From: an uncultured Planctomycetales bacterium
GTDB lineage: Bacteria; Omnitrophota; Gorgyraeia; Gygaellales; Profunditerraquicolaceae
NCBI GenBank assembly: GCA_964608955.1
Contig: CAZSQC010000001.1
Location: 6,959 to 64,371 of the forward strand
Direction of reading: 5' to 3'
Length of the DNA stretch: 57,413 nt
Shown here: piece by piece, positions 1,282-16,599 of the stretch
How the letters are laid out: each line of letters opens with the position of its first letter
Position numbering within the stretch: position 1 is the stretch's first letter
The notes under the pieces: model-generated
Database searches by the model: none
The model's input: the letters and a program-made list of their open reading frames with translations, nothing else
Told to the model about the DNA's origin: nothing
Program-made: the position numbers and the translations under genes

Positions 1282-2193
1282 TTATACTTTATTGAACAAA
1301 CTCTGAAGATTCTCACCTAAAATATTATCCTCATCATTCTCGGATAGGCCCAGGCTCCTAATAGCATTAATACTGATTTGGGGTTCTTTTTTTGCCGGAT
1401 AATCCGAACCCCAGAGAATATGCTTTGGACCGAATAACTCCAGTGCCGCGCTAAAATTCGCCTTTGTAGTATCTCCGCTAGTATCAACATAAATATTCTT
1501 TAATAACTGTGTGGGGTCGTTTTTTAAATCCTTAACAAAATTAATTCCGCGCAGCATTTGATAAGTTGTATCAAAGCGGTTTGCGAGAAACGGGATAACT
1601 CCTCCGAAATATGCAAAAATAAACTTAACCCTGTAGTCTTTTAATATATCCGACATCAAAAGCTTCCCGATACAGATAGTGGTGTCAAAAACGTATTCTA
1701 TGACGGGTGTAAGAAGAGGATCCTCAACGCGTTCGGTACCTATGGGCTTAATAATCTGCGAGTGCACGAATACCGGGATATTCTTCTCCTGCGCCAGCTT
1801 GTAAACTCCTAAAAAACGCCTGTCATCTAAATAAACCTGATTGTAACTTGAGGCCAGCGAAATAGCCTTAAAACCCAACTCTTCTGTTGTACGCCTGAAC
1901 TCCTTAAGCATATCAAGTTCATGGTCAACGGGGAGTATCGCAGCCCCTACAAACCTCTCGGGGTATCTTTTCAAGACTTTGGAGACATTGTCATTAAAAA
2001 TACGTACAACTTCGGATATGCTCCCTAATTTTAAATGGGCATCGGAAGTCGGATAAGACAAAACAGCCTTATCTATCTTTGCCTCATCCATTATTTTAAG
2101 CTGAGCTTCAATATCACCCCAGCCTTTATGGTAAAAATGGGCGTTATTAATTATGCCTTCCGGCAGCCAATGGCTATGCGCGTCTATTATCAT
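1282..2193 (-). CDS. amidohydrolase_2 family metal-dependent hydrolase/decarboxylase (ACMSD/LigW-like)
   Basis: 303 aa. N-terminal IDAHSHWLP (HxH metal ligands) and C-terminal LWGSDYP aspartate motif. Its start ATG (2191-2193) shares base 2193 with the stop codon of the preceding ORF. Confidence 0.8.
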   Translation of the reverse strand: MIIDAHSHWLPEGIINNAHFYHKGWGDIEAQLKIMDEAKIDKAVLSYPTSDAHLKLGSISEVVRIFNDNVSKVLKRYPERFVGAAILPVDHELDMLKEFRRTTEELGFKAISLASSYNQVYLDDRRFLGVYKLAQEKNIPVFVHSQIIKPIGTERVEDPLLTPVIEYVFDTTICIGKLLMSDILKDYRVKFIFAYFGGVIPFLANRFDTTYQMLRGINFVKDLKNDPTQLLKNIYVDTSGDTTKANFSAALELFGPKHILWGSDYPAKKEPQISINAIRSLGLSENDEDNILGENLQSLFNKV

Positions 2194-2585
2194 TAATGCT
2201 CTGTGCTCCTTAAAATTCTGGCGGTCATTTCAGACTCATAAAACCTTTTTATATCCTTTAAGGTATTCTTCCCGAGCTCTTTTATTATCACTTTTTCAAC
2301 TGCCTTAAGCCTTAATAATAAAAACTCATAATCCGCAGATAGTTTTCTATCTTTAAACTTTAAACTAAGTCCTTCTTGCTCTTTCTTTACTATGTAATTC
2401 TCGAAGTCCTTTATGAAATTTGATATCGTACCTTTCTTATCCCGCGCCTTAAGCTCCCTTAAGATAATTCTGTCAATCTCGGCCTGCGTAAACTTACGCT
2501 CAACCTTATCAAAAGCTTCTTTTGCGCTCTTATAAAACCATACAAGGTAGCGCTTTTTCAGATTCTTGGTGTCATTTTTATCCAT
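2193..2585 (-). CDS. hypothetical highly charged helical protein
   Basis: ORF track gives 2193..2630. The first 15 codons are encoded by the GC-rich tandem repeat. The internal ATG at 2585 (MDKNDTKNLKK...) is preceded by AGGA, so the shorter start is preferred. No recognisable family. Confidence 0.45.
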   Translation of the reverse strand: MDKNDTKNLKKRYLVWFYKSAKEAFDKVERKFTQAEIDRIILRELKARDKKGTISNFIKDFENYIVKKEQEGLSLKFKDRKLSADYEFLLLRLKAVEKVIIKELGKNTLKDIKRFYESEMTARILRSTEH

Positions 2586-2600
2586 ATCTTTATTTATCCT

Positions 2601-2677
2601 GGTGCAGCTTAAGAGGCGCGCACCGGGCATTCCTTTTTATCCGGGTGCAGCTTAAGAGGCGCGCACCGGGCATTCCT
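2601..2677. repeat. tandem direct repeat, two exact 34-nt copies at 43-nt period, GC-rich
   Basis: GGTGCAGCTTAAGAGGCGCGCACCGGGCATTCCT occurs at 2601-2634 and 2644-2677. A degenerate related segment CCCGGGTGCGCCTGCTTAA at 2683-2701 forms the 3' end of the SDR gene. Each copy carries a GGTGC...GCACC short inverted repeat. Confidence 0.9.
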
Positions 2678-3452
2678 ATTTGCCCGGGTGCGCCTGCTTA
2701 AACGGTATTACCGGAGCAGTCCAAGGAGTCTGCTGGTTTATAACCGAGATCTCCAGAGGGCAGACATTTGCCGGAACAGTCAAGGCAAACTTTACCGCAT
2801 TCTCGATCGCCTCGGTGCTCATTAATCTAGAAGTATCCTGGGTTACCTCTTTTAATTTACCGGTAAGGTCAGTATCAGTTACCCCCGGTAGAAGAGAAGT
2901 AACTTTTATCCCGTAGTCCCTTAATTCCCAGAAGAGCCCTTTAAGAAACGCACGCAACCCTACCTTAAGAGAGCTGTAAACAATAAAATTCCTCGGTAAG
3001 GGATCGCATAGCGTAGATCCCGAAACCATATTTATTATCGCGCCGGACTTTTGTTTTATCATATCATTGATAACTAACCGGATTAAACGTACATAGCCCA
3101 GATAATTAGTGTGCGCCAGCCTTTCAAAATCTTCTATCGGCTGTTCCGGAAACGGATACTGACTGGAAACACCGGCGTTATTAACTAGAATATCAATTCT
3201 GCCGAATTTCTCCTTAGTTTTGTTAACCAAGTTCTCCAGATCCTCTAACTTTGTAACATCGCAGGCAACCGGTAAAACATCCACCTGGTATTTCTTTGCA
3301 ATCTCCTCTGCAGTCTCCTTTAAGGGCCCTTCCTGGCGCGCAGCAATAGTAATATTAATTCCCAGGCTGGCGCATGTTGAAGCAAGCGCCTTGCCTATCC
3401 CGCGGCTGGCTCCAGTAATAATTGCGACTTTTCCTTTTAGTTCCCGGCTCAT
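2676..3452 (-). CDS. SDR family oxidoreductase (candidate ketoreductase)
   Basis: 258 aa. Has TGASRGIG cofactor motif, NNAG, and the YSSLK (YxxxK) catalytic motif. Confidence 0.9.
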   Translation of the reverse strand: MSRELKGKVAIITGASRGIGKALASTCASLGINITIAARQEGPLKETAEEIAKKYQVDVLPVACDVTKLEDLENLVNKTKEKFGRIDILVNNAGVSSQYPFPEQPIEDFERLAHTNYLGYVRLIRLVINDMIKQKSGAIINMVSGSTLCDPLPRNFIVYSSLKVGLRAFLKGLFWELRDYGIKVTSLLPGVTDTDLTGKLKEVTQDTSRLMSTEAIENAVKFALTVPANVCPLEISVINQQTPWTAPVIPFKQAHPGK

Positions 3453-3465
3453 AATTATTCCTCCC

Positions 3466-4583
3466 TTATTTAATTTTAGTTAATTTACCTCTGGAGAGCA
3501 GAAAAAACAACCCGCACCCAAAGACTACAAATCCAAGGTTAAAACTTTTTGACATAATAAACCCGCCCAAACTCATTCCTAATCCCCCGGATATAAACCT
3601 TATGCTACTATTTAAGCTCGCTGCTTCATTTAACGCATCAGGAGGAAGATCTGTGAGCATAGGGGAAAGGCCAAAATGGTTAAAGGTCCTTCTTAGCCCC
3701 AGAATAACATTGGTTAATGCAAAAACCAAAGAGGCGGCTTTAAAACAAGAAAAATAATACTGAATATCATCAGCAAGATTCCCCAGTTAATTATCTTTTT
3801 TCTCCCTAATGAATCCGCAAGCAACCCTCCCCAAATCTCCCCGAAAATACCGCTTAGCGCGGTTAAGGTAATCAGCATGCTGATTTTAAATTGATCTAGG
3901 CCTATCTGGGTTGAGAAATAAACCCCCAGCCACTGCTGTATGGCGTGGTAAATCAGGCTTATTAAAAAGATATATGATAAAATCCTTACTATGCCCTTGT
4001 CTTTAAAAATACTGAAGTAATTAAATTCAAATACTCCCATATCTTCTTTAAAGCTCGGAAGACAAAAATACATAAGCGCCCATAATATAAAACCTAAAGT
4101 GCCGGGGATTAAGAATATGAACCTCCAGTAAATAACGCCGCTTAAAAACAGTCCCAAGAGCGAGGCAATAAAGGTAAGCCCGAAAAAAGTTCCTATATAT
4201 TTACCGCGCTCTTCTTGAGCCTTATGCCTGGCGATAAGAATTAACCCCAGAGGGATTACCGAGGCGCCAAAGAAACCCATCAATAATCTTCCTGACAGCA
4301 GTACTAAAAAACCTTTGGCAAAACCTACTATGAGGTTAGCGAAAGAAAATAAAATAATGCATATTAGTTCTACTGTGCGCGCGTCAAACTTGCGTACTAA
4401 AGGCCCGTAGAGAAGCGCGGCTAGTCCATAGGTAACCATGTAAGACCAGACTATTGCCCCTACGCTAAACTGAGAAAGAGCGAATTCTTTTGCTACCGAA
4501 GGGATTAAGGCTGCGGCTGCAGCAACATTAAAAGAAAGCAGCGCGCCCTCTAAACAAAGGATAATAAAAGTAAATTTCTTCAA
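3466..4583 (-). pseudogene. MFS transporter, reading frame interrupted (two ORFs 3714..4583 and 3466..3729)
   Basis: The 289 aa multi-TM ORF ends ...LKPPLWFLH*. An overlapping ORF in another frame continues with 87 aa of further TM helices. The frames switch at a T5 run (plus-strand A5 at 3721-3725). Joined length of about 370 aa fits a 12-TM MFS protein. Confidence 0.65.
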
Positions 4584-5020
4584 CTCTTTGCTTCTTTTTC
4601 TATTACCTGCTTAAAAATTAAAAGATTATCTTTAGAGTGCTTATTAATAAACCCTTCAACCTGCTCATCGGTAAACTTTGCCTTCTCATCCATCTCAAAG
4701 TGCTGTATCCAAGTTAGGTCTATTCCCTCTTTTTTAGGAGTATAAAGCCAGATTATCTTCATGTACTTAAAAGGAAACTTGGGCTCCTGCCTTTCGGCGT
4801 AAGCAAAATATTTATCCTTAACCAGGAATCTCCAAGAAATCCAAGACTTATCCTCATCGTCAGTCAGACGGAATGTTATCTTATCGCCTTCCTTACTGAC
4901 AATCTCTGCGGCTTTATACTCATGCCCAAAAAGTTCTGTCCAGCGCGGGATATCGTTGGAGATATCAAATACTTTATCATATGGCGCATTGATAACTATT
5001 GAATTACATGTATGGCCCAT
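4580..5020 (-). CDS. SRPBCC superfamily protein, polyketide cyclase/aromatase-like
   Basis: 146 aa. N-terminal ...SIVINAPYDKVFDISNDIPRWTELF... resembles the Polyketide_cyc2 / TcmN-type ARO/CYC helix-grip fold. A 4-nt ATGA overlap couples it to the MFS gene. Confidence 0.7.
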   Translation of the reverse strand: MGHTCNSIVINAPYDKVFDISNDIPRWTELFGHEYKAAEIVSKEGDKITFRLTDDEDKSWISWRFLVKDKYFAYAERQEPKFPFKYMKIIWLYTPKKEGIDLTWIQHFEMDEKAKFTDEQVEGFINKHSKDNLLIFKQVIEKEAKS

Positions 5021-5115
5021 TAAAACTCTCCTTTCTCGCGTATCCCATAACTCATTATTATTTTTTCTTGTAAAACTACCGCTTTTTGCAGACGATCTAA
5101 CAACGCTTAGATCTC

Positions 5116-5916
5116 CTAAGCTACCGCAACTACCCTGGACCAGGCAGCTCCTGTCCGGCGTATTCTTACCGGGAAACAGATAATCTTAAAACCTGTTGCG
5201 CCAGGCAAGTTTCCCAAATTACCTAATCTTTCTATATGGATAAACTCGCGTTTTCTGCCGTAAAAATGCGCGGGATAAAATTTCTCGGGGTTTCTTGTTT
5301 CCATAAATTCCTTTAGCATAAATTTATAAGGACGGTCAATACCCATGGTATCTACACCGAAAACTTTGATGCCGCGGTCCATAAGAAAATCTATTGCTGA
5401 TATTCCGACTCCGGGGTACTCTGAAAAATATTTAGGAGTGCCATAAAATTTATCCGCCCCTGTCCAGAAAAGAACGATATCAAGCGGCTTAAGGCTGTAA
5501 TTGATTTCTTTTAAAGCCGCTTCTAAGTCTTTAGCAGTTATCTCCTCCGTGGAATTCTTTTTCCTTAAATCCAGGCGCACCCCATTCTGAAAGCAATATT
5601 CCAGCGGGATTTCATCAGCGGTCTTAGATGCCTTACCTTCTGATTTAGTGCCGTAATGAAAGGTGTAATCCAAGTGCGTTCCCACGTGCACGGGAGAATG
5701 CACTGTTTCCAGGGAAAGGAATTCACCCTCCGGAACATCGGTTGCTTTAAGTATTCTTTTGCCTAAAAGGAAATTAATTCTTCCTTTAAGGGTCTTTCCC
5801 ATAATTACGCGGTTAAACTTCTCCACGCCGTCTTTATGGCTGATGCGCTCGATTTCGACCTTATGCACTTCAAAGGCCTCTTCATCAATCGGAAGGCTTA
5901 AATCAATTATCGTCAT
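5116..5916 (-). CDS. cyclase family protein (PF04199-type, kynurenine formamidase-like)
   Basis: 266 aa. HVGTHLDYTFH matches the HxGTHxDxxxH metal-binding signature of the putative-cyclase family. Its start directly abuts the ACP stop. Confidence 0.8.
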   Translation of the reverse strand: MTIIDLSLPIDEEAFEVHKVEIERISHKDGVEKFNRVIMGKTLKGRINFLLGKRILKATDVPEGEFLSLETVHSPVHVGTHLDYTFHYGTKSEGKASKTADEIPLEYCFQNGVRLDLRKKNSTEEITAKDLEAALKEINYSLKPLDIVLFWTGADKFYGTPKYFSEYPGVGISAIDFLMDRGIKVFGVDTMGIDRPYKFMLKEFMETRNPEKFYPAHFYGRKREFIHIERLGNLGNLPGATGFKIICFPVRIRRTGAAWSRVVAVA

Positions 5917-6153
5917 TTATTTTGTTTGCTTTGAAAGAATAACCTTTTCGATATCATCAATCGAAGAGGATTTAGTGATCTCTTTGGGGCTAAGCTTTAC
6001 TCCAAAGGCCTTCTCCAACGCAATCACTGATTCGACCATTTCAGTTGAATCCACCCCGATTGATTCCTGTAAAGTTACTGCATCTTTTAGTTCTTCGGGT
6101 TTTACTTTTAGCAAATCGACGAGAACTTCTTTAATCTTGAGCTTGATCTCCAT
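5917..6153 (-). CDS. acyl carrier protein
   Basis: 78 aa, acidic. GVDSTEMVE contains the phosphopantetheine-attachment DS motif. Confidence 0.85.
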   Translation of the reverse strand: MEIKLKIKEVLVDLLKVKPEELKDAVTLQESIGVDSTEMVESVIALEKAFGVKLSPKEITKSSSIDDIEKVILSKQTK

Positions 6154-6164
6154 TTGAATACCTC

Positions 6165-7628
6165 CTATATCTGCACTTCACCTTTAGTTGCGGCTGCTTC
6201 CCATTTATTAATGCCGTCCATGACATCTTTAAAACAAAGCTTGGCAAGCGGATCGAAATTACTCTCCATAATCCTGTTAATACGGCCGGGCTTGGAGAAA
6301 AACTCCCTCATGCACCAGGAGCCCAATCGGCCTAAGTCCTCGGTAGTTAAATGGTCCGTGGGAATAACGGGATGCAGAAAATCCCAAGTGCTAAAATCAA
6401 CTTTTTTAGGGTCCACCCAGCCTTTCTTTAAAGCAATCCTCCACATCGGAGAATTAGGGGCCGGGGTAACATAACCTACCCACATAATATCCGGGTCAAC
6501 CGCATCGGTAAATTCAAAACGCTGCTTGATAATCGCTTCGGTGTCATAATCAAAACCCATCATAATGTCAGCTACTATTGCAATATCGTTCTTGCGCAGT
6601 ATCTCGATTGTCTTCTGGATCTGGTCTATGGTAATCCCTTTGGCAATTTTCTTTAACTCTGACTGGGTAGTAACTTCTATCCCAAAAACGCCCATAAATA
6701 ACCCATTCTCCTTCATTAAGGGGACTACTGACTCACAGTTAACCCAGTCAATGGCGCGGCCTAAAGAAACCCATTTGATAGGGTTATTGGCTGCTTTTTT
6801 TAGCTCGCAGAACTTCTTTACGCGGTCAGGATCGACATTAAAATTATCATCCTGGATTACTACGACTTTCACTCCGTATTTTTTGTGCAGAAGATTGAGC
6901 TCCTCCATTACTCTCTCCGGAGATTTCGCACGCCACTTTAAGAAATCCGAAGGAGAACGCGGGTCAAACTGATCCCATTCGTAACAGAAGGTACAAGCCG
7001 AAGGACAACCCCTGGATGTTACCATATCGACAAAAGGCTTCCAGTATGTATGCCCTACATATTTATCCATAGGGAATAAATCATAAGCAGGCAGAGGAAG
7101 CTTATCTAAATCCTGCATTAAGGGCTTATGCGGCCCCATGACTATTTTTCCGTCAATGCGGGAAGTAACTCCCCCTACATCTTTTAAGGGCTTATTCTTA
7201 TCGAGCGCCTCGATTAGGTCTCCGAAAGACTCTTCTTCTCCCATTACCACAAAATCAATCTCGGGATTTTCTTCCAGGGTAGGGACGGGCATTGCAGAAT
7301 ACCATAATCCGCCTAATACTATTTTCGTTTTCGGCAAAACTTTTTTAATTCCTATAGCGGCATCCTTGAAATGGCGCAGGACCCCGTAACCTCCGTAACC
7401 ATGAAGCTGCTCTCCCATTACCACCACATCAGGATTCATATCTTTGACCCTCTGAATCAGCTGGTCCATGGGTATCTGGTCAGCTTTTCCGTCAATCACT
7501 GCGACATCAGAATAACCGCGGGTATCCCTGACATAAGCTGCCCAATGAGCATAAAGCTGGTTTGGAGAACGGTGTATACCATGGGTTGCCCATGCGCCCA
7601 CCTTCGGCATAACAAATAATATTTTCAT
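6165..7628 (-). CDS. B12-binding domain radical SAM protein (class B rSAM)
   Basis: 487 aa. N-terminal Rossmann-like cobalamin-binding-type region is followed by SRGCPSACTFC (CxxxCxxC). A strong AGGAGG Shine-Dalgarno sits upstream. Confidence 0.9.
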   Translation of the reverse strand: MKILFVMPKVGAWATHGIHRSPNQLYAHWAAYVRDTRGYSDVAVIDGKADQIPMDQLIQRVKDMNPDVVVMGEQLHGYGGYGVLRHFKDAAIGIKKVLPKTKIVLGGLWYSAMPVPTLEENPEIDFVVMGEEESFGDLIEALDKNKPLKDVGGVTSRIDGKIVMGPHKPLMQDLDKLPLPAYDLFPMDKYVGHTYWKPFVDMVTSRGCPSACTFCYEWDQFDPRSPSDFLKWRAKSPERVMEELNLLHKKYGVKVVVIQDDNFNVDPDRVKKFCELKKAANNPIKWVSLGRAIDWVNCESVVPLMKENGLFMGVFGIEVTTQSELKKIAKGITIDQIQKTIEILRKNDIAIVADIMMGFDYDTEAIIKQRFEFTDAVDPDIMWVGYVTPAPNSPMWRIALKKGWVDPKKVDFSTWDFLHPVIPTDHLTTEDLGRLGSWCMREFFSKPGRINRIMESNFDPLAKLCFKDVMDGINKWEAAATKGEVQI

Positions 7629-7645
7629 CTACTTCCTCCTCTTAT

Positions 7646-7704
7646 GGGGACACCCTGCCGATTAGGTCAAAGGATGTCCCTTGATTAGACTAAAGGGTGT
7701 CCCC
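7646..7704. repeat. 11-bp perfect inverted repeat (GGGGACACCCT / AGGGTGTCCCC) bridging the CLF stop and the rSAM ribosome-binding site, plus a degenerate third copy
   Basis: Arms lie at 7646-7656 and 7694-7704. A 9/11 related copy AGGATGTCCCT lies at 7671-7681. On the mRNA the 3' arm ends 5 nt before AGGAGG. Confidence 0.6.
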
Positions 7705-8928
7705 TTTTTCGATAACCAGGACTGAATTTATTCCGCCTCTTCCGCGGGAGATTATCAAAGCTTTATTTATCTTTTTTTCTTTTGGTTCTTTACCTATATA
7801 ATTAAGGCCTTCAATAGCAGGGTTATCAAGATTTACGGTAGGGGGAACTAAATTATTCTCCATGGCGAGGATTGTCGTAATCAAATCCACTGCTCCGGAT
7901 GCGCCGAGTAAATTACCGAACATGGATTTAGGGCAGCTTACCGGAATATTTCTCAGATTTTCCTTAAAAATTATTTTTAATGCTTTTATCTCTGAATCAT
8001 CCCACAGCGAGCTAGCAAGCCCGTCTAAGCTTATAAAATCTATATCTGCAGGCTGTATCTTAGCATCAGCAAGGGCATTACTTATCGCTCTTGCCAGTTC
8101 CACTCCATCAGGAGCGCAATCAATACGATCTACGCCGTCACAAGTAGCGGCATATCCTGAAATCAAAGCCTGGATATTAACCTTTCTTTCTTTAGCGCGC
8201 CTTATACTCTCCATCACTACAATTCCCGCACCTTCCCCTATTACGCAGCCATCCCTGCTTTTATCAAAAGGGCGATAGGCGGATTTTGGACTACTGTTAT
8301 TCTTAGAAAGCGCACCGTAAGTATTGCAGCATAAAAGCGCATACGGCGTTACCGGCGCTTCCATGCCTCCGGCTAAAATCATGTCCAATTTATTCTTTGC
8401 TAAAACTTTCCTGGCATAACCTAAAGCCATAAGCGAACTTGCACGGTCAGCAACAACGGTCTTAGAAAAACCCTTTATCCCGTAATAAATAGATACTTGT
8501 CCCTGCGGAGCAGCCGGAAACCATGCTGAAGCCATATAAGGAGAAACGCCCTCCCTGCCTTCGATATATAAATCGCGCAGCTCTGTTTCGGCATAAAGCC
8601 AGCCGCCTATTGCATTACCCAGAAAAATTCCGACTAAATTAGGGTCCTCTTTTTTTATATCAATGCCGGAGTCCTGCAGGGCCATTTCAGCGGCGATTAA
8701 AGCCATGTGCGAAAAGGCGTCTATTTTCTTAGCGAGCCTCTCTGAAATATGGCTGTACTTCTCAAGGTCATCAATCTGCCCCGCGATATGCGCAGGGTAT
8801 TTTGAAGCTTCAAATCTGGTAATCTCTTTTATGAATGACCTTGCGCTTTTAATATTTGCCCAAAACTGGCGCTTGCCTATTCCTGAAGGCGCAACTATAC
8901 CTATGCCGGTTACCGCTATTTTATCCAT
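7690..8928 (-). CDS. beta-ketoacyl synthase family protein lacking the catalytic triad (KS-beta / chain-length-factor-like)
   Basis: 412 aa and aligns along its length with the adjacent KS. Active-site STGCTAG corresponds to VADRASS (Cys to Arg). NAHGSST corresponds to SLDGLAS (His to Asp). MIGHPL corresponds to MFGNLL (His to Asn). An 8-nt overlap couples it to the KS-alpha gene. Confidence 0.85.
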   Translation of the reverse strand: MDKIAVTGIGIVAPSGIGKRQFWANIKSARSFIKEITRFEASKYPAHIAGQIDDLEKYSHISERLAKKIDAFSHMALIAAEMALQDSGIDIKKEDPNLVGIFLGNAIGGWLYAETELRDLYIEGREGVSPYMASAWFPAAPQGQVSIYYGIKGFSKTVVADRASSLMALGYARKVLAKNKLDMILAGGMEAPVTPYALLCCNTYGALSKNNSSPKSAYRPFDKSRDGCVIGEGAGIVVMESIRRAKERKVNIQALISGYAATCDGVDRIDCAPDGVELARAISNALADAKIQPADIDFISLDGLASSLWDDSEIKALKIIFKENLRNIPVSCPKSMFGNLLGASGAVDLITTILAMENNLVPPTVNLDNPAIEGLNYIGKEPKEKKINKALIISRGRGGINSVLVIEKGDTL

Positions 8929-10183
8929 TATATCTCCTTAAAACCAACGATGAATGAATCCCAGAAAAACCGCTGCTTGTTTTTAATATCACATCTACCT
9001 TTTTTTTAATCGCTTCATTGGGTATATAGTATAAATCGCACTGCGGATCTTTTTCTTCCTGGTTAATCGTAGGGGGGAGGATATTTTTCTCAAATATCAA
9101 AGCTGCGACTGTAAGCTCGATTGCGTTTGCCGCGGCCAAAGGATGCCCGATCATGGACTTAAAGGAACTTATCGGAAGTTTATATGCGTACTCCCCGAAG
9201 ATTGCTTTATAGGCGCTGGTTTCGAATATGTCATTCATGCGGGTAGAAGAGCCATGGGCATTGATATAGTCCACATCTTTAGGATTGACATCGGAGTCTT
9301 TTAACGCTAAATCTATACACATCTCCATTGCCCTGCCATCGGAAGGAAGATCTGTCATATGGAAGGCATTGCAACTTGTCCCGAACCCTAAAACTTCGCA
9401 ATATATTTTTGCGTTTCTTCTTAAAGCATGGTTTAACTCCTCTAACACAAGAATCCCCGCCCCTTCGGAAAGGACAAAGCCGTCCCTTTTGTTATCAAAA
9501 GGCCGGGAGGCTTTTTCAGGCTCGCTGTTATGCACAGATAAAACATTAACGACGTCGAATGCGCCAAAAGTAATCGGAGTAATCGGAGCTTCTGCTGCGC
9601 CGCAAATCATGATATCCTGCTCTCCGTCCTGGATAGACTCTAAACCAAATCCCAAAGAATCCGTCCCAGCAGTACAGCCTGTAGAAAGAGTATTGCATAT
9701 TCCTTTTAACCCATATTTGGAGGAAATTTCTATGGAAGGCGTATTAAACATCGCCGCGTCGTAAAGGTCCTGGCGCACCAGAGAAGGGTCAATAGGTTTC
9801 TTGCCATCTTCAGTTACCAGGGCAAATTCCTCTTCCATATATTTTGTCCCGCAAATGGCGTTTGCCAGGCATACCCCTGCCCTGCGTGGATCTTCTTTCT
9901 TAAAATCAATGCCGCTGTCTTTTATCGCCATATTTCCTGCCACTACGCCGAACTGCACATACCTATCCATGCGCATCGCCTCTTCATGGGTCAGGCCGAG
10001 TTTAAAAGGGTCAAAATCACGCACTTCCGCCGCTATTTTTGTATTAAAAACTGACACATCAAAACCATCAACCAGCTTTACGCCGGACTTGCCCGAAGAC
10101 ATTCCCCTCCATACAGCTTCTTTTCCTATTCCATTAGGGGAAACTGTTCCTACTCCAGTAATAACCACTCTGCGTTTTTCCAT
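8921..10183 (-). CDS. beta-ketoacyl-ACP synthase, type II PKS KS-alpha-like
   Basis: Has STGCTAG active-site Cys, NAHGSSTRMND and SMIGHPLAAA His motifs. Start set at MEKRRVVITGVG (ATG 10183, AGGAGA upstream) rather than the extended ORF start at 10216. Confidence 0.9.
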   Translation of the reverse strand: MEKRRVVITGVGTVSPNGIGKEAVWRGMSSGKSGVKLVDGFDVSVFNTKIAAEVRDFDPFKLGLTHEEAMRMDRYVQFGVVAGNMAIKDSGIDFKKEDPRRAGVCLANAICGTKYMEEEFALVTEDGKKPIDPSLVRQDLYDAAMFNTPSIEISSKYGLKGICNTLSTGCTAGTDSLGFGLESIQDGEQDIMICGAAEAPITPITFGAFDVVNVLSVHNSEPEKASRPFDNKRDGFVLSEGAGILVLEELNHALRRNAKIYCEVLGFGTSCNAFHMTDLPSDGRAMEMCIDLALKDSDVNPKDVDYINAHGSSTRMNDIFETSAYKAIFGEYAYKLPISSFKSMIGHPLAAANAIELTVAALIFEKNILPPTINQEEKDPQCDLYYIPNEAIKKKVDVILKTSSGFSGIHSSLVLRRYNG

Positions 10184-10230
10184 AAAATTATTCTTTCTCC
10201 TGGCCCGCAAGGGCAAACCCGCGCAATTCC

Positions 10231-10833
10231 TTATACACGCGGGGTATCTTCTACTCTTGTTACTTTAAATATTATATTCCCGCCGTCAGGGCAGGTAACC
10301 GTATCAATAGAATTGGGATCCTGCATAAAGAAAAATTTTGCCCCGAAATTTAACGCGAATAAAGCAGGAAAGGCGGTGTGAAACGCCGCCCCGCAAAATC
10401 CGGGGATGCACTTTAAACCCTGCGTCTCCCATTTATCACCCACCTTGTAACCGAAAGTACATTTACCCTTAGCCTTAACTACCTCAATAATCATCTTCTT
10501 GGGATTAGGGCCTTTATGGTTAGGATCCTTAGGAAGTACCTCGACATTTCCGTTCTTATCCAGTATTTCGGCTTTAAATTCAAGCTTTCCTCCGTCAGGA
10601 CAGGTAACTAAAAGAGACCTCTGGTTGTCGCGGAAACCAAACTTTGCACCGAAGCTTAAGGCATAAATAACCGGAAAAAGGGCGTGCGCTAAACCCAGAC
10701 AAAAATGCTTTGGGGGATGGGTGAAATCCTCCAGGATAATTTCATCCCCTGCCTTATAACCATGATAACACTCTCCGTAAACACCTGTTACTGTAAGTTT
10801 TAACTTCGGAAAAGGCGTATTGACTTCACTCAT
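10231..10833 (-). CDS. tandem-duplicated TIGR04076 family protein (function unknown)
   Basis: 200 aa with two homologous halves. Each has G(E/K)C..GYK.GD ... FC ... FP..(Y/F)AL.FGAKF ... V(T)CPDGG ... F(K). This resembles the roughly 90 aa Cys-rich TIGR04076 module. Confidence 0.65.
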   Translation of the reverse strand: MSEVNTPFPKLKLTVTGVYGECYHGYKAGDEIILEDFTHPPKHFCLGLAHALFPVIYALSFGAKFGFRDNQRSLLVTCPDGGKLEFKAEILDKNGNVEVLPKDPNHKGPNPKKMIIEVVKAKGKCTFGYKVGDKWETQGLKCIPGFCGAAFHTAFPALFALNFGAKFFFMQDPNSIDTVTCPDGGNIIFKVTRVEDTPRV

Positions 10834-10837
10834 ATTC

Positions 10838-11845
10838 TTAATTTAATAAATGCTTTAAGCTACTGTTTAATTCCTCTTTTGTTAAAAATTTATTATCTTT
10901 TTCTACCCTATGTACCAACTCCACCAAGGCTTTATTAAGAGGAGCGGCAAGCCCGTTCTTCTCTGCAAGCGATACAAATTCGCCGTTAATATAATCGATC
11001 TCCGAAGCCTTGCCTCTCCTTATGCTCTGTAATATTGAACCATACAAAGGATCCTTGCTTAACTTAGTCATGATCCCAGAAAATATTTTTGCAGCCTCTT
11101 CTTTAGGGATCGCTATAAGCTTAGTTACATTCTCTATAGGGAAACCCGGCAGAGACTCCATTTTGATATTAAGCCTTGATAGCAGATTGAATCCTTCTTC
11201 CCAGATTTTGATACTTACCATGCTTATATTATGGTCCGCGAATGCCTCCTGCATGCTTAATCCCAGTATCGCGGGGATACAGTTATTGGCGTTTACAAAA
11301 ATCTTCAGATATTTCATGCCTAATATATTTTGGCTTACTACCGCCGGAAAAGCCTTATCCAGAATCATGCTTACATCAAGGATACCGGGATTAGGCACTT
11401 CTTTAAAAACGCTCCCTACTACCCAGTCTCCTTCGAAATTATGCACAACCCTCCCGGGTTCAATGAGAGTAGAGCCAAACATCACAATACTTGAAAGGAT
11501 ATTTTCTTTTGGCAGAAGCCTTGCGATTATATTCTCGGACTGCACGCCGTTCTGCGTAGTAAGTATTATTGTTTTCTTAAGAAGGGGGAGATTATCTCTT
11601 ATCGCTTTTTCTACATCCTGGGTTTTAGTCGCAACTATCAAAATCTTTGGCTCCGACACTAAAAACTCATAAACATGAACGGGGACTTTAAAATCTCCCC
11701 TGACCCCGGAAATTACTACTCCGTTTTTGTGTATCGCGTCTACTGAATCGGGCTTTGCGACTAAATATACGTCTTCACCTTTTAATTTAAGATACCCTGC
11801 CGCTAAGGCACCGATTGCTCCCGCGCCTATTATTGCTACGCTCAA
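10838..11845 (-). CDS. 2-dehydropantoate 2-reductase (PanE/ApbA) family oxidoreductase
   Basis: 335 aa. N-terminal IIGAGAIGALAAGYL Rossmann motif, and C-terminal SILQSIRRGKASEIDYINGEFV typical of the ApbA_C domain. Confidence 0.85.
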   Translation of the reverse strand: MSVAIIGAGAIGALAAGYLKLKGEDVYLVAKPDSVDAIHKNGVVISGVRGDFKVPVHVYEFLVSEPKILIVATKTQDVEKAIRDNLPLLKKTIILTTQNGVQSENIIARLLPKENILSSIVMFGSTLIEPGRVVHNFEGDWVVGSVFKEVPNPGILDVSMILDKAFPAVVSQNILGMKYLKIFVNANNCIPAILGLSMQEAFADHNISMVSIKIWEEGFNLLSRLNIKMESLPGFPIENVTKLIAIPKEEAAKIFSGIMTKLSKDPLYGSILQSIRRGKASEIDYINGEFVSLAEKNGLAAPLNKALVELVHRVEKDNKFLTKEELNSSLKHLLN

Positions 11846-11857
11846 AATGAACCTTCC

Positions 11858-12127
11858 TTATTTACTATTTGACCTAGGGAAACCGTACTTCTTATAATCA
11901 AATCCGGTTTGCTCCAAAAGCCTTACCATCATGCTGTAAAAAGGAGACGGTACATCGGAGAAAAAGGCACAAACAACATCCTCCTCCTGCACCATCGGAC
12001 TGTTCCTCCTTAGGGCATTCTCTCTCGCCTTCTTGGTTACAGCTTCCTCGGTAATATGCCGGTGGAATACCGGGATTTTTGATATAAAAAGCCTGAACTT
12101 TGCCTGGGTCTTATTTTCCCATTCCAT
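11858..12127 (-). CDS. small PCP_red-like protein (protochlorophyllide reductase subunit B C-terminal domain family)
   Basis: 89 aa. W..K.QAKF...ISKIPVFHRHITEEAVTKKARENAL...V.EEDV resembles the W..eA...l.kIPfFvR pattern of PF08369. It is the first gene after the promoter. Confidence 0.45.
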   Translation of the reverse strand: MEWENKTQAKFRLFISKIPVFHRHITEEAVTKKARENALRRNSPMVQEEDVVCAFFSDVPSPFYSMMVRLLEQTGFDYKKYGFPRSNSK

Positions 12128-12139
12128 ATGTCTTAAAAT

Positions 12140-12157
12140 ATAGTAAAATTTTACTAT
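12140..12157. promoter_or_regulatory. 18-bp perfect palindrome ATAGTAAAATTTTACTAT, candidate operator
   Basis: Lies between the predicted -10 (12171-12176) and the first start codon (12127). An extra AGTAAA half-site is at 12163-12168. Confidence 0.5.
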
Positions 12158-12170
12158 TTATCAGTAAACT

Positions 12171-12199
12171 ATTTTATAATTTCAGTAGTCTTGTGTCAA
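12171..12199 (-). promoter_or_regulatory. sigma70-like promoter of the PKS-like operon
   Basis: Minus strand reads TTGACA (12199-12194), a 17-nt spacer, then TAAAAT (12176-12171). Confidence 0.55.
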
Positions 12200-12264: not shown

Positions 12265-12555
12265 TTAAGTACATTCATCCAAAGGCAATACAAAGGCTTT
12301 TATTCCTTCTTGTCCGGCTTTATTCCTGAGATCTTTGATTCCCTGAATCAATCTTTTTGAATCCGGTTCCTGGCAGGCGACATAAAGAATATTATTTAAT
12401 CCCGGCCAGATATCAGTACCCAAATGCGCACCGCTCGTTATTCCTTTACCGAATACCTTGGGAATTTTGGTATAACCCTGTATCTTAAAGTCACCCAAAA
12501 CCTCCATTAGCTCATTATCTAACGCCTCATTATATACGATCATAAGCATTCTCAT
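12265..12555 (-). CDS. small P-II-fold-like RND transporter-associated protein (PG0541/DUF3240-like)
   Basis: 96 aa. VYNEALDNELMEVL....GYTKIP.V.GKG..SGAHLGTDIWPG.N resembles the small proteins encoded 3' of RND pumps. An ATGA overlap couples it to the RND gene. Confidence 0.55.
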   Translation of the reverse strand: MRMLMIVYNEALDNELMEVLGDFKIQGYTKIPKVFGKGITSGAHLGTDIWPGLNNILYVACQEPDSKRLIQGIKDLRNKAGQEGIKAFVLPLDECT

Positions 12556-15500
12556 CTTTTCTTTGCCTCCTTTAATAACGTGCCTCTATGGAATACCGCA
12601 TAAAGCGTAGGGACAAAAAGCATGGTAATAAAAGTTGAAACGGATAAGCCGCTTATCATCGTTATGCCAAGTGGCTGCCATGTTTCTGACCCTGTGCCGC
12701 GCGATAGAGCAAGCGGAAGAAGGCCGACGAGCGTAGTTATGGTTGTCATTAAAACAGGCCTGAGCCTGTCTTTTCCTGCATGGGTAACTGCCTCATGCAT
12801 TGAAAAACCCCTGGCCCTTAATATATTGATATAGCTTATTAAAACAATGGCGTTATTTACGACTATACCCATAAGCATGACTATTCCGAGAAAAGTATTA
12901 ATGCTTAAATTTGTCCTGGTTATGACAAAACCCAATATGACGCCTACAAAGGTAAACGGTATGGAAAACATTATAATAAAAGGATCCAGGAGCGACTCAA
13001 ACTGCCCGGCCATTACCATATATACTAAAGCTATACCTAAAATCAGCAGAAGAGTTAAATCCTTAAAGGCCTTTTTCTGCTCCTCTGCTTCTCCTCCAAA
13101 GCTCACAACAATATCAGAAGGTATAGCTATCTTTTTAAGTTCTTTCTTTAAGTCTTCTACTATTTTCCCGGACGACCTTTTGTAAGCATTGCACTCTACG
13201 CTTACTACTCTTTCGCGGTTCAGGCGATCAATTGTCTCCGGGCCGCTTGTTTCATAAATCCTTGCAATATTACTTAATCTTATAAGTTTCCTAGAAAAAC
13301 CTTTAGTGCTTGCCGCTGCCTCAAGGGTCTCAAACGGCACATTGTCTTCTGGTAGGGGAGCGACAATAGAAAGGTTATTAATGTCTTCTATTTTAGAGCG
13401 CGATGCATCCTCAAGCCTTACATATATATCGTAAGTTTTTCCCTTTTCCCTGTATTTTGTTGCGGTAGAACCCTGAATAAATGTTTTCAGGGTTTCCGAT
13501 ATCGTATACATATCAAGCCCCAGGCTTGCGGCTTTTTCTCTATCTACTTCAATCCTTAATTCGGGCCGGTTCGGCTCCCTGGAAACGCTTACATCCACTG
13601 CCCCGGGTATTTTCTCAAGAACACCTTTTATCTTTTCTGCTAAAACATCGGTCGTCTCGAATGAATTTCCGATAACATCAAGCTGTACTGCCTTGCCTCC
13701 GGTGCCCGCGATTAACCTGCCCAAAGGATTCCCGGTAGTAATATTAGTCTTTAAAACCCCCGGAATATCCTTAATCTTCTTTCTTACTGCCTGGCCTACT
13801 TCTTTCACTGAACGCTTCCTATTTTCTTTAGGGATAAGCTTAGCGCCGGCTGAAATTATATGCGTCCCCGCATCTCCACCCATTAATCTTCCCACCCCCG
13901 TTATTGAGCCGCTGCGGGAATAGTAGAATTTTGCCTCCGGGATATCAGCCTTTAATATCTCTTCTATTCTCAAGGCTACCCTATCAGTCTCTTCCACCCT
14001 TGTGCCAATTGGAAGATATACCGTTAGCCTTAGGTCTCCGGAGTCTTCTTCCGGAATAAATTCATTTCCTACCAAAGGAAGCAACATCAAACTTAAGAAG
14101 AAAGCCCCTAAGAATCCTATTAAAACGGTTTTTTTATGCCCAAGACAAAAACTTAAAGCCTTGCTATATTTATCCTCCCATCCCGTAAACCATTTCTCTG
14201 ATATTTGATATAAATTAGCCAGAAATCCTTCTTTCCTCTGCTTTATCCTCAACCACTTTGAACAAAGCATAGGAGTAAAGGTAAGCGCAGTAAATAAAGA
14301 AGCGGTTAAGGTTACCGAAACAACCATAGCTAAAACCCCAAACATTATACCTATAACTCCGGGCAGAAAGAGCATCGGCAAAAAGACTACCAGAGTAGTA
14401 AGTGTTGAGGCGGCTATTGCCAGGAAAAGCTCTGATGAACCGAATATGGCTGCTTCTGATGGGCGGTTCCCCCTTTCAAGCCGGCGGTAAACATTGTCTA
14501 CCACCACTATCGCATTGTCAACTATCATCCCCGATGCGATAGCTAAAGATGATAGGCTTATTACATTGATAGTCCCCTGGCTTAAGAAAAGGTAGATGAA
14601 AGCTGCGAGAAGCGAAAATGGAAGCGTCAGTGCAATAATCAAGCTCGGAGTAAATGCCCGCAAAAAAAACCAGACAACAAATACGACAAGGAAAATACCT
14701 AACCAAACCGAAGATTTAAGAGAATTAAGTGAGTCGATTATGTCCTTTGAAGTATCAAATATAATATTTAATTTTACATCAGAAGGCAGGGTTTTCTCTA
14801 TCTCTTTGAGTTTTTCCTTAACGCGGCTAGCAACTTCTACCGTATTAGTGCCGTTCTGCTTCTGAACCATAAGCATAATACCGCGTTTTCCGCTAATACG
14901 CACATAACCTGTTTCCTCCTCAAAACCATCTTCTACCCTCGCAACATCTTTCAGGTAAATAGGTTTTCCTTTACGTTTACCCAAGATAACCAAGTTTATT
15001 TCTTCCGGCGTTGCAAATTCACCGGGGAGCCTTATAAGGTAATCTGTCAAGCCTGTCTTCAAACTGCCAACCGGCTGGGTTACATTCTCCTGCTTTAATT
15101 TATTCTTAATATCCAAAATAGAGAAACCGTAACCCTCTAACCTTTGCCTGTCAATCCATATGTTGATTTGTCTTTTTAAACCTCCACCCTGCATCTGAAC
15201 AGTGCCAACTCCGGGGAGCTGCTTTAACATATCTCCTATTCTTTTTTCTACAATATCATAAAGATCCGGATAACTCTGGTCGGCAGTTATCCCAATATAT
15301 ATAATAGGCATATTAGCGGTGTTGAATTTAAAGATTATTGGATTGTCCATCTCATCCGGGATATCCGGCAAAAACCTCTTGGCCCGTTCTATTCTATCGC
15401 GTACATCATTAGAGGCTTCGTCAAGATTGGTCCCCCAGATAAACTTGAGCCTTATTACGGATGAGCCTTCCGAAGAAGAAGAAGTCATCTTTTCTAGGCC

Positions 15501-15725
15501 GGGAGTAGTGCCTAGCTGGTTTTCTAACTCCTCCGTAACTTTAATTTCAACGTCTGCCGGGCTTGCTCCGGGATAAGTTGATATGACGCTTATGGAAGGA
15601 GGCTCTATCTCAGGCATCATGTCAACACCAAGACGGCTTAAAGAATACGCAGCCAGAATGATGATAGCGGTAAATATCATCAAGTTAGTAACTGGTTTTC
15701 TTACTCCGAATTGCGGTAAATTCAT
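12552..15725 (-). CDS. RND efflux transporter permease (AcrB/HAE family)
   Basis: 1057 aa with 12-TM plus two large periplasmic loops. The N-terminus ...RKPVTNLMIFTAIIILAAYS and overall composition are typical of the ACR_tran family. Confidence 0.95.
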   Translation of the reverse strand: MNLPQFGVRKPVTNLMIFTAIIILAAYSLSRLGVDMMPEIEPPSISVISTYPGASPADVEIKVTEELENQLGTTPGLEKMTSSSSEGSSVIRLKFIWGTNLDEASNDVRDRIERAKRFLPDIPDEMDNPIIFKFNTANMPIIYIGITADQSYPDLYDIVEKRIGDMLKQLPGVGTVQMQGGGLKRQINIWIDRQRLEGYGFSILDIKNKLKQENVTQPVGSLKTGLTDYLIRLPGEFATPEEINLVILGKRKGKPIYLKDVARVEDGFEEETGYVRISGKRGIMLMVQKQNGTNTVEVASRVKEKLKEIEKTLPSDVKLNIIFDTSKDIIDSLNSLKSSVWLGIFLVVFVVWFFLRAFTPSLIIALTLPFSLLAAFIYLFLSQGTINVISLSSLAIASGMIVDNAIVVVDNVYRRLERGNRPSEAAIFGSSELFLAIAASTLTTLVVFLPMLFLPGVIGIMFGVLAMVVSVTLTASLFTALTFTPMLCSKWLRIKQRKEGFLANLYQISEKWFTGWEDKYSKALSFCLGHKKTVLIGFLGAFFLSLMLLPLVGNEFIPEEDSGDLRLTVYLPIGTRVEETDRVALRIEEILKADIPEAKFYYSRSGSITGVGRLMGGDAGTHIISAGAKLIPKENRKRSVKEVGQAVRKKIKDIPGVLKTNITTGNPLGRLIAGTGGKAVQLDVIGNSFETTDVLAEKIKGVLEKIPGAVDVSVSREPNRPELRIEVDREKAASLGLDMYTISETLKTFIQGSTATKYREKGKTYDIYVRLEDASRSKIEDINNLSIVAPLPEDNVPFETLEAAASTKGFSRKLIRLSNIARIYETSGPETIDRLNRERVVSVECNAYKRSSGKIVEDLKKELKKIAIPSDIVVSFGGEAEEQKKAFKDLTLLLILGIALVYMVMAGQFESLLDPFIIMFSIPFTFVGVILGFVITRTNLSINTFLGIVMLMGIVVNNAIVLISYINILRARGFSMHEAVTHAGKDRLRPVLMTTITTLVGLLPLALSRGTGSETWQPLGITMISGLSVSTFITMLFVPTLYAVFHRGTLLKEAKKR

Positions 15726-16597
15726 TTTTTTTCTACCTCAAAGGCTACCGGAGCGCCCGCATAAAGCTTCTGCTGCCCCATGATAACAACCAAATCCCCT
15801 TCCTTAAGCCCGCTTTTAACTTCATAATAAAAACCTTCTCTTATCCCGAGTGAAACCTTTTTAAGCAAGGCTTTCTTATCCTCAATAACAAAGACATAAG
15901 TAGCTGAATCTCTGCCTATCACAGCCTCCTTAATGATGGCAGGTACAGAAGTTATTTTATCCAAAATAATGCTCACCTTGGCAAACATCCCGGATTTCAA
16001 TTTGCCCTGCGGGTTTTCTATTGTTATTTCAACGGGAACAGAACGCGTTGAAAGATCAATCACAGGGCTTATTTTTGTAACGGAACCGGTAAATTCTTCA
16101 TAAGGGTAAGAATCCACTTTAGCACTGGCTTCCTGCGATAATGAAAGCCTGGGTATGTACTTTTCTGGAATATCCAGAACTATCTTAACCTTACTATCAT
16201 TTACAACAAAAGCTACCGGGGTCTGCGTATTGACATTTTCGCCTATATCTACAAAGACTCTTCCTACTATTCCGGTCAAAGTACTTTGAACCGGCGCTTT
16301 CTCAAATTTAAGCCCGACTTCATCGCGATCGATATAACATATAGTATCCCCCTTTTCAACCGCACTACCGTCTTCTTTTATCTTCTCGATTATTTTACCG
16401 CTTACCTTAGGATAGATATAGGCCTCATCCATGGCCTTGACGTCTCCGGCATACTCTAGCAATGAATTTAAATCCCTTAATTTTACTTCCATAACCTTTA
16501 CAGGGATAACTTCTTCCTTCTTTCCCCTTGCCTCTTTGGATTGACATCCTAAAACCGCCAATAATATAAAAAACAATATTAGTTTATATCTAAACAT
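15722..16597 (-). CDS. RND efflux periplasmic adaptor (MFP/HlyD family) lipoprotein
   Basis: 291 aa. Has a lipobox LAVLGC and a barrel-sandwich hybrid pattern. A 4-nt overlap couples it to the RND gene. Confidence 0.9.
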   Translation of the reverse strand: MFRYKLILFFILLAVLGCQSKEARGKKEEVIPVKVMEVKLRDLNSLLEYAGDVKAMDEAYIYPKVSGKIIEKIKEDGSAVEKGDTICYIDRDEVGLKFEKAPVQSTLTGIVGRVFVDIGENVNTQTPVAFVVNDSKVKIVLDIPEKYIPRLSLSQEASAKVDSYPYEEFTGSVTKISPVIDLSTRSVPVEITIENPQGKLKSGMFAKVSIILDKITSVPAIIKEAVIGRDSATYVFVIEDKKALLKKVSLGIREGFYYEVKSGLKEGDLVVIMGQQKLYAGAPVAFEVEKK

Positions 16598-16599
16598 AA

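Follow-up and report, generated by a model that had tools for sequence, protein, structure and literature searches.

A putative ancestral-type aromatic type II polyketide synthase operon with an embedded class B radical SAM enzyme in Candidatus Omnitrophota

We analyzed a 57,413-nucleotide stretch of contig CAZSQC010000001.1 (the whole of which is called the window here), whose source genome belongs to Candidatus Omnitrophota, and found on its minus strand a compact string of genes that appears to encode an aromatic type II polyketide synthase (PKS) together with a class B radical S-adenosylmethionine (SAM) enzyme. The minus strand carries every long open reading frame (ORF) from position 12199 down to the start of the window, and gene assignments were made by Pfam and NCBIfam profile searches. 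Behind a sigma-70-like promoter (TTGACA-17-TAAAAT, minus strand, 12171 to 12199) and a perfect 18-bp palindrome (12140 to 12157), the string begins with a gene for an 89-amino-acid protein (11858 to 12127), a PanE/ApbA-family NAD(P)H-dependent reductase (10838 to 11845; PF02558 and PF08546, and TIGR00745 at 174 bits against a cut-off of 141), and a protein of two tandem TIGR04076 repeats, a putative metal or redox protein (10231 to 10833; 102 bits against a cut-off of 33). Next come the ketosynthase (KS) KS-alpha (8921 to 10216), whose Cys/His/His triad lies in the motifs STGCTAG, AHGSST, and GHPL, and a protein of the KS-beta/chain-length factor (CLF) lineage (7690 to 8928), recognized by domain search and alignment, with Arg/Asp/Asn at the triad positions. 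The radical SAM enzyme (6165 to 7628) and the acyl carrier protein (ACP; 5917 to 6153) are followed by a PF04199 (OxyN-type) cyclase-family metalloenzyme (5116 to 5916), a mono-domain TcmN/WhiE-type aromatase/cyclase (SRPBCC; 4580 to 5020), a major facilitator superfamily (MFS) efflux transporter in two frames (3466 to 4583), a classical short-chain dehydrogenase/reductase (SDR) with TGxxxGIG and YxxxK motifs that is a putative ketoreductase (2676 to 3452), a helical protein of about 130 amino acids that matches no family and is the least conserved member of the cluster (2193 to 2630), and an Amidohydrolase_2 (Amidohydro_2) enzyme found by domain search (1282 to 2193). A first-pass annotation, made by reading the DNA, had listed these 13 genes and the two sets of KS triad residues; positions, domains, and triad residues were all borne out, with the exception of the name given to the first small protein.

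The genes lie close together and partly overlap, by 8 nucleotides between KS-alpha and KS-beta, 4 between the SRPBCC and MFS genes, and 1 between the family-less ORF and the amidohydrolase gene. The starts of the longest ORFs (TTG at 10216 for KS-alpha, ATG at 2630 for the family-less ORF) overrun the conserved N termini of the orthologs, and the true starts are probably an ATG at 10183 for KS-alpha and position 2585 for the latter, 145-amino-acid ORF. Compared with intact 372-amino-acid orthologs, the frame break in the MFS gene is a 1-nucleotide deletion in a run of T residues (3728 to 3735), which may reflect a real pseudogene or an assembly error. No convincing terminator was found inside the operon, where terminator counts equaled those of shuffled sequence, and an Rfam search of the cluster returned no RNA element. 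The gene string proposed by the first-pass annotation stands, but its stated end at 2193 does not, since the operon continues through the amidohydrolase gene into a PNP_UDP_1 nucleoside phosphorylase/nucleosidase gene (521 to 1270), the first gene of a nucleoside-salvage module, and then into the N-terminal part of an IF-2B/MtnA-like sugar-1-phosphate isomerase gene (1 to 483; ILTHCN motif), which runs off the window.

The same arrangement recurs widely. Homologs of the radical SAM enzyme comprised more than 120 cluster representatives at 72 to 95% identity, the named ones nearly all from Candidatus Omnitrophota; a second homolog search, with a Thermodesulfobacteriota-labeled radical SAM protein, returned the same family again and no cultured organism. 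Judging from these sequences, the enzyme forms a tight family of its own that is essentially confined to Omnitrophota. In a scan of one genome per species, 317 genomes encode a relative, and we examined gene order in the best 80 of the 317, all Omnitrophota or unclassified metagenome-assembled genomes (MAGs). Every locus among the 80 that was long enough has an identical order, called variant A: the small gene, PanE, TIGR04076, KS-alpha, KS-beta, radical SAM, ACP, cyclase, SRPBCC, an optional MFS gene (45 of 67 loci), SDR, in some loci an extra CBM11-like secreted gene, the family-less ORF, amidohydrolase, and the nucleoside phosphorylase gene (PNP). The recurrence in related genomes that the first-pass annotation had suggested looking for is thus plainly there. 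The CBM11-like gene, which would encode a secreted 202-amino-acid protein, lies between SDR and the family-less ORF in 41 loci (14998 to 15606 in locus L001), and the window is without it. Variant A order was also found on a 1.6-Mb contig whose radical SAM protein NCBI labels Thermodesulfobacteriota (the protein is recorded on contigs of up to 3.3 Mb) and in a "Pseudomonadota" MAG.

A scan of metagenomes, for which distant KS-beta relatives served as seeds, brought up rearranged versions, and two or three of these, from deeper Omnitrophota lineages, retain the B12 radical SAM gene. In variant B, one contig of which (917 kb) belongs to Omnitrophota by NCBI protein names, the salvage genes and an aldehyde dehydrogenase (ALDH) gene come first, followed by radical SAM, the small gene, PanE, TIGR04076, KS-alpha, KS-beta, ACP, and cyclase, with SRPBCC, an optional MFS gene, SDR, and amidohydrolase toward the end; the small gene is thus present in variants A and B. 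In one locus the radical SAM gene lies between the cyclase and SRPBCC genes, and variant C (L085, 1 to 17236) has a LolA-like gene, an FMN reductase, two aldehyde:ferredoxin oxidoreductases (AFORs), and an FAD amine-oxidase-like gene. The radical SAM gene thus accompanies the PKS in several gene orders, an argument that the two are functionally linked. A second, more distant type II PKS locus, variant D (L087, 2644 to 16078), is ant/aurachin-like and encodes two O-methyltransferases, KS-alpha, KS-beta, ACP, a phosphopantetheinyl transferase (PPTase), an AMP-ligase, a CMD-family protein, a PF04199 cyclase, an SRPBCC protein, a chorismate-binding enzyme, an alpha/beta hydrolase, and an SQS_PSY protein. 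Its contig is as long (46,462) as the Omnitrophota contig of locus L005, and the two clusters may share one contig, although the stretches retrieved for them do not overlap. Across the same 25 genomes, median identities to the window were 91% for the radical SAM enzyme (a value inflated relative to the other genes by the choice of loci), 88% for TIGR04076, 88% for SDR, 84% for PNP, 83% for KS-alpha, and 79% for KS-beta, compared with 78% for the housekeeping neighbor AccA. This conservation of the core enzymes suggests a core metabolite and not a variable or strain-specific antibiotic.

The KS pair groups with aromatic type II PKS subunits. Compared with solved structures, KS-alpha scored 378 bits with actinorhodin (act) KS-alpha, 376 with Photorhabdus AntD, and 348 with the best FabF, at identities of 45 to 47% to AntD and 43 to 45% to act KS-alpha. 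A five-residue insertion is common to these three KS-alpha proteins, whereas FabF and KS-beta are without it. In trees with a small reference set, KS-alpha with AntD and act KS-alpha, KS-beta with act CLF, and FabF each split off with 100% bootstrap support, so that the pair falls outside FabF; KS-alpha branched with AntD in 77% of bootstraps. The FabF equivalog TIGR03150 failed for both proteins (KS-alpha 459 and KS-beta 364 bits against a cut-off of 493.75), while KS-alpha passed the NCBIfam model PRK07314 for beta-ketoacyl-ACP synthase II (448 bits against 387). Against the KS pair of the anammox cluster discussed below, the two proteins scored 281 and 158 to 207 bits, below their scores with act KS or FabF. 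The KS-alpha triad motifs are conserved in the orthologs, and Arg/Asp/Asn at the KS-beta triad positions is invariant across 74 sequences.

The invariant Arg that KS-beta has in place of the Cys aligns with Gln161 of act CLF. Of the 12 nearest single-domain representatives (37 to 67% identity), 9 have it as well, as does the KS-beta of variant D, and in a rough motif scan it is seemingly common among related KS-beta proteins, which points to an Arg-type CLF clade broader than this cluster. The gate positions F109, T112, and F116 of act CLF are W, A, and L here, a weak hint at chain length that we did not use for any conclusion.

The ACP matches PF00550 at an E value of 8e-10, and its GVDS motif, with the Ser for phosphopantetheine attachment, is invariant. 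The SRPBCC protein matches the TcmN (4e-23) and WhiE-ORFVI aromatase/cyclases (E values of 1e-22 to 4e-23) and retains W28, F32, E34, Y35, W65, S67, R69, R82, M91, W95, W108, Q110, and N136 of TcmN, which are reportedly its catalytic and pocket residues. The HxGTHxDxxxH metal motif of the PF04199 family is intact (HVGTHLDYTFH). No dehydratase domain was found in any gene of the cluster or its variants, and in this respect the cluster differs from highly reducing type II PKS and aryl polyene systems. Type II PKS clusters commonly lack an acyltransferase or PPTase gene, so the first-pass annotation made too much of this absence. KS, CLF, ACP, TcmN, and OxyN together have been described as the "ancestral" architecture of type II PKSs outside the actinomycetes, from which the OxyN naming is also taken (PMC7693217). 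Because of this published core, the PF04199 and SRPBCC genes beside KS, CLF, and ACP are standard for that group.

The radical SAM enzyme has the class B architecture, with an N-terminal B12-binding domain (PF02310, 39.9 bits against a cut-off of 32.1) and a Radical_SAM domain (PF04055, 74 bits) whose CxxxCxxC motif reads CPSACTFC, and cobalamin binding is predicted. Among named families, it scores best with BchE (201 bits against a cut-off of 481) and HpnJ (159 against 578), so that it is BchE/HpnJ-like but an equivalog of neither; methyltransferase families score lower, and the ladderane-type family TIGR04072 gave 68 bits against 360. Membership in the ladderane, FabF, BchE, and HpnJ families was thus rejected in each case on the curated cut-off. 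A structural model of moderate quality with a poor core (pLDDT 64) had AprD4, TokK, CysS, TsrM, MgmA, and OxsB as fold neighbors, which confirmed the class B architecture and assigned no reaction. The solved TokK and CysS entries contain pantetheinylated ligands, which makes it plausible by analogy that the enzyme acts on an ACP-bound intermediate; in variant A its gene sits between those for CLF and ACP. A C-methylation is one candidate reaction; the others are BchE-like, either an oxidation that needs no oxygen or the formation of a C-C bond.

Three Cys residues and one His are invariant in each TIGR04076 repeat (C...C-x4-H...CPDGG), which suggests that the protein holds a metal site. A Foldseek search of its AlphaFold2 model (pLDDT 68) against the PDB returned nothing below an E value of 0.3, and there was no PDB sequence match. 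In Bilophila, a TIGR04076 gene neighbors a radical-enzyme activase, and a redox or Fe-S role was guessed by the authors of that study (PMC8667426). The first-pass annotation had called the 89-amino-acid protein PCP_red-like; the gene is real, but the label is weak, with sub-threshold DUF2621 matches in 5 of 5 orthologs and PCP_red matches at E values of 0.02 to 0.1 in 2 of 5. In variant B the radical SAM, 89-amino-acid, PanE, and TIGR04076 genes are contiguous and lead into KS-alpha.

The salvage module that follows the amidohydrolase gene is conserved as well. PNP and then the MtnA-like isomerase and a class II aldolase were found in 38 of the 39 loci with room for them, and ALDH in 32 loci. 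Locus L001 contains a full-length isomerase ortholog followed by an aldolase and ALDH; in variant B the salvage genes lie directly upstream of the radical SAM gene, and variant C has AFOR in place of ALDH. The isomerase passes TIGR00524 (192 against 186 bits), the aldolase matches Aldolase_II at an E value of 6e-35, and PNP matched at the Pfam level. The salvage aldolase of L001 (18587 to 19588), ortholog of the gene immediately beyond the window start, is a fusion protein with a sterol-carrier-like SCP2 domain (PF02036, 23.6 against 21.3 bits). By gene content, phosphorylase, isomerase, and aldolase together would make up the dihydroxyacetone phosphate (DHAP) shunt, which removes 5'-deoxyadenosine, a by-product of radical SAM enzymes. 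AFOR in variant C could turn acetaldehyde from such a shunt into reduced ferredoxin.

Upstream, the promoter proposed in the first-pass annotation ranks first in 18.5 kb, with 11 of 12 positions matched, in a scanned region where promoter-like matches are not enriched overall, and most orthologous loci have CTTGACA with a -10 box in the corresponding position upstream of the small gene. Directly after the -10 box stands the operator-like palindrome, ATAGTAAAATTTTACTAT, likewise confirmed as a perfect 18-mer. It follows the promoter throughout the variant A loci, usually with a PadR gene next to it. An exact 16-mer of it occurs once per locus in 53 loci, each time immediately upstream of the small gene, and stays exact while its intergenic flanks diverge between loci; by chance, 0.11 palindrome matches at up to three mismatches would be expected in the window. 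A riboswitch or RNA leader was considered and rejected, as the Rfam search was empty and the palindrome is too AT-rich and loopless for a convincing RNA hairpin. The conserved half-sites, TAGT-N8-ACTA, have a 4-N8-4 layout that resembles the PadR operator consensus, ATGT-N8-ACAT, and make the palindrome a putative repressor operator. A PadR-family gene adjoins the cluster in 24 loci, 139 nucleotides upstream; in the window, the corresponding gene, a candidate repressor for the palindrome, lies at 18400 to 18912 on the minus strand.

Between PadR and the cluster, the window carries a resistance-nodulation-division (RND) efflux operon, MarR-TolC-HlyD-AcrB-PG0541 (12265 to 18308, minus strand). 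This operon had been noted as lying directly upstream, which is correct, but it is no fixed neighbor: besides the window, it occupies this place as an optional insertion in 14 of the 47 Omnitrophota loci with enough upstream sequence, and in loci without it PadR is directly upstream of the cluster, within the conserved synteny DUF212-YkuD/LysM-AccA-PadR. Other versions of the cluster carry MarR and MMPL, MMPL and DUF1329, or a LolA-like gene. There is thus a recurrent association of the cluster with exporters of hydrophobic molecules.

Our results lead us to conclude, with a probability of roughly 60%, that the locus is a repressor-controlled chromosomal operon of Candidatus Omnitrophota encoding an aromatic type II PKS of the "ancestral" type. 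It is an orphan variant, spread across Omnitrophota, of which a class B radical SAM enzyme is an integral part and which also has a CLF of the Arg type, a conserved operator, and salvage genes encoded in the same operon. The first-pass proposal, a type II PKS-like operon in which a class B radical SAM gene and unusual accessory genes are embedded, is upheld by the KS/CLF grouping, the TcmN-type residues, and the conserved neighborhood, and the first of its refuting conditions, a KS pair nested within FabF/FabB in a neighborhood that relatives do not keep, does not hold. Not part of that proposal were the conservation across the phylum, the conservation of the operator, the PadR gene, the 3' salvage module, and the optionality of the RND operon. 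Under this model, KS-alpha and KS-beta would condense malonyl units on the ACP, borrowing malonyl-CoA:ACP transacylase and PPTase from primary metabolism, and the TcmN-like and PF04199 cyclases would turn the poly-beta-keto chain, by folding and aromatization, into a phenolic product with two or more rings. Trimming of this product would fall to the SDR, the PanE-like reductase, and the amidohydrolase, likely a decarboxylase, while the B12 radical SAM enzyme would carry out an oxygen-independent radical step on a pantetheine- or ACP-bound intermediate (one of the three reactions considered above), possibly with the TIGR04076 and 89-amino-acid proteins as redox or auxiliary partners. The 5'-deoxyadenosine by-product would be disposed of by the downstream module along a DHAP-shunt-like route, the hydrophobic product would leave the cell through MFS, RND, MMPL, or LolA-like systems, and a PadR-type repressor would control transcription at the palindrome.

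Several observations weigh against this conclusion. All chemical steps are assigned by homology, and the radical SAM enzyme, below the cut-off of every named family, is left without an assigned reaction. The KS trees are neighbor-joining trees with only five reference sequences, read from printed alignments, and in raw scores KS-beta comes nearer to FabF, at 284 bits, than to act CLF, at 240 bits. The canonical priming Gln of the CLF is absent, with Arg in its place, so that priming may differ from that of textbook type II PKSs. The salvage module resembles the 5'-deoxyadenosine DHAP shunt in gene content only; PNP has no specific family assignment, with weak uridine/DeoD phosphorylase matches, and an SCP2 domain on a sugar-phosphate aldolase is unexplained. 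The palindrome is not present in variants B to D, and binding of a PadR-type repressor to it is putative. Finally, the 80 loci were picked by best radical SAM match, which raises the identity of this enzyme over that of the other genes.

Among the alternatives, the one that survives best is that the radical SAM, 89-amino-acid, PanE, and TIGR04076 proteins form a starter-unit module, which would supply an unusual 2-hydroxy or branched acid for extension by the Arg-type CLF/KS pair, the radical SAM enzyme having no part in tailoring the core. PanE enzymes reduce 2-oxo acids, the four genes are contiguous in variant B, and the invariant Arg that replaces the Gln for acetate priming could bind a carboxylate. 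Yet variants A to C contain no CoA ligase, acyltransferase, or ketosynthase III to load a starter other than acetate, and the Arg is not specific to the module, being present also in the KS-beta of variant D, which does have an AMP-ligase, and seemingly common in related KS-beta proteins; we therefore consider a starter-unit module improbable.

We likewise disfavor, as a somewhat slimmer prospect, a specialized ACP-dependent lipid pathway, already raised as an alternative in the first-pass annotation, in which the KS pair would make an acyl chain, the radical SAM enzyme would methylate, cyclize, or cross-link it into a ladderane-like or other radical-modified fatty acid, the SRPBCC and SCP2 domains would bind lipid, and the product would be a membrane or outer membrane lipid. 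This view draws on the FabF proteins as best raw matches of KS-beta, on the recurrent RND, MMPL, and LolA-like lipid exporters and the SCP2 fusion, and on the housekeeping-level conservation, which fits a membrane component. A heterodimer of a KS and an inactive KS with radical SAM genes is also the anammox pattern (preprint 10.64898/2026.05.19.726425), and antiSMASH "ladderane" clusters, which are generic calls, have been reported in Omnitrophota MAGs (PMC9902471). Against it, dehydratase and enoyl reductase occur in no variant, the SRPBCC protein keeps the catalytic residues of polyketide aromatases and not merely their fold, KS-alpha and KS-beta group with aromatic PKS subunits, the radical SAM enzyme falls far below the TIGR04072 cut-off, and the anammox KS-beta has Val or Thr, not Arg, at the Cys position.

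Very unlikely, in our estimate, is a PadR-induced operon for the anoxic catabolism of phenolic or phloroglucinol-type compounds, in which the SDR would reduce the ring, the PF04199 protein hydrolyze it, the amidohydrolase decarboxylate, and the MFS protein take up the substrate. PadR regulators typically respond to phenolic acids, the closest solved relatives of the amidohydrolase are aromatic-acid decarboxylases (the non-oxidative enzymes ACMSD, LigW, and gamma-resorcylate decarboxylase), and the MFS protein has weak matches to an aromatic-acid symporter; but an intact and conserved KS-alpha triad is a hallmark of biosynthesis, and so are the dedicated ACP, the CLF, and the TcmN-type aromatase, the MFS gene is optional, and CoA-transferase or thiolase-type catabolic genes are not present. 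An ordinary housekeeping FabF/FabB pair with unrelated neighbors has a negligible chance, since, apart from the PRK07314 match of KS-alpha, both proteins stay under the FabF equivalog cut-off, KS-beta is without the whole catalytic triad, the tree sets both apart from FabF, and the neighborhood is strictly conserved.

Returning to the aromatic PKS, one speculative and rather doubtful extension is that its product is an aromatic polyketide made without oxygen as a core metabolite of Omnitrophota, such as a quinone-like redox carrier or a phenolic lipid anchored in the outer membrane, and that a BchE-like B12 radical SAM enzyme would replace aerobic oxygenases and be served by its own 5'-deoxyadenosine recycling, possibly returning reducing power via aldehyde oxidation. 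The host is probably an anaerobe. If true, this would make type II polyketide synthesis a part of primary metabolism in a whole phylum of ultra-small bacteria. The usual view places type II PKSs in variable secondary metabolism and mostly in actinomycetes; in the present case, such a PKS is a fixed feature of hundreds of species in an uncultivated phylum that is mostly anaerobic, and its core enzymes show higher conservation than acetyl-CoA carboxylase. Omnitrophica KS-CLF pairs have appeared in published surveys as catalog entries, without characterization (PMC10132072). Beyond this listing and the generic "ladderane" calls, our literature search returned no description of the cluster and no characterized equivalent. 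The literature searched described no type II PKS of which a cobalamin radical SAM enzyme is an integral part, and the present one may be the first; it would open a route to oxygen-free tailoring on ACP-bound aromatic intermediates. The Arg-type CLF clade departs from the Gln-priming model. The conserved operator and the PadR gene lend themselves to direct tests, as does the salvage module encoded with the PKS. As for the product, it might be of use as a chemical biomarker of Omnitrophota or account for part of their physiology.

The remainder of the window is housekeeping in character (accA, GTP cyclohydrolase I, mnmE, purH, EF-G, and others), its composition is even, and no genes of mobile-element type turned up in Pfam scans of it. 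A lysine-2,3-aminomutase-like radical SAM gene followed by two D-Ala-D-Ala-ligase-like ATP-grasp genes (33772 to 36947) may constitute a beta-lysine-derived peptide or modification system. The window also contains a 6S RNA (77.9 bits, 54511 to 54672) and a tRNA (47946 to 48021), both on the minus strand, and two PilZ-domain proteins (23902 to 24246 and 41240 to 43180), one of them of 646 amino acids without another recognized domain.

In comparison with known systems, individual parts of the cluster have clear counterparts. The radical SAM enzyme has its domain layout and CxxxCxxC motif in common with BchE, HpnJ, TokK, and CysS. The salvage module has the same three enzyme families in the same order as the DHAP shunt, often followed by an aldehyde-oxidizing enzyme; in contrast to that shunt, it lies physically within a PKS operon, and its aldolase is fused to SCP2. 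The "ladderane" fatty acid synthase-like cluster of anammox bacteria (amxFabF2/amxFabFmut) likewise combines an active KS, a triad-less KS homolog, radical SAM genes, and an ACP of its own (preprint 10.64898/2026.05.19.726425), which is possibly the reason why genome-mining tools tag Omnitrophota clusters as "ladderane," but the Omnitrophota cluster has aromatase and cyclase genes and no FabZ gene. With the minimal PKSs of the actinobacterial tcm/whiE type it shares the mono-domain aromatase/cyclase, at the E values given above, and it differs from them in the replacement of CLF Gln161 by Arg and in having neither TcmI/TcmJ-type cyclases nor oxygenases.

Also among the closest known systems are the "ancestral" clusters outside the actinomycetes, the ant cluster for AQ-256 of Photorhabdus and the clusters for dendrubins (den) and pyxidicyclines (pcy). 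The ant cluster carries both PPTase and CoA ligase genes, whereas the Omnitrophota cluster has neither. All three share with it the core of KS-alpha, CLF, ACP, TcmN-type aromatase, and OxyN/PF04199 cyclase (PMC7693217), and their hosts are likewise Gram-negative or anaerobic. In contrast to their duplicated TcmN-TcmN protein, the Omnitrophota cluster has a single-domain TcmN. Unlike them, it also contains an embedded B12 radical SAM gene, TIGR04076, PanE-like, 89-amino-acid, and Amidohydrolase_2 genes, and a nucleoside-salvage module, and it is conserved throughout its phylum at the level of housekeeping genes.

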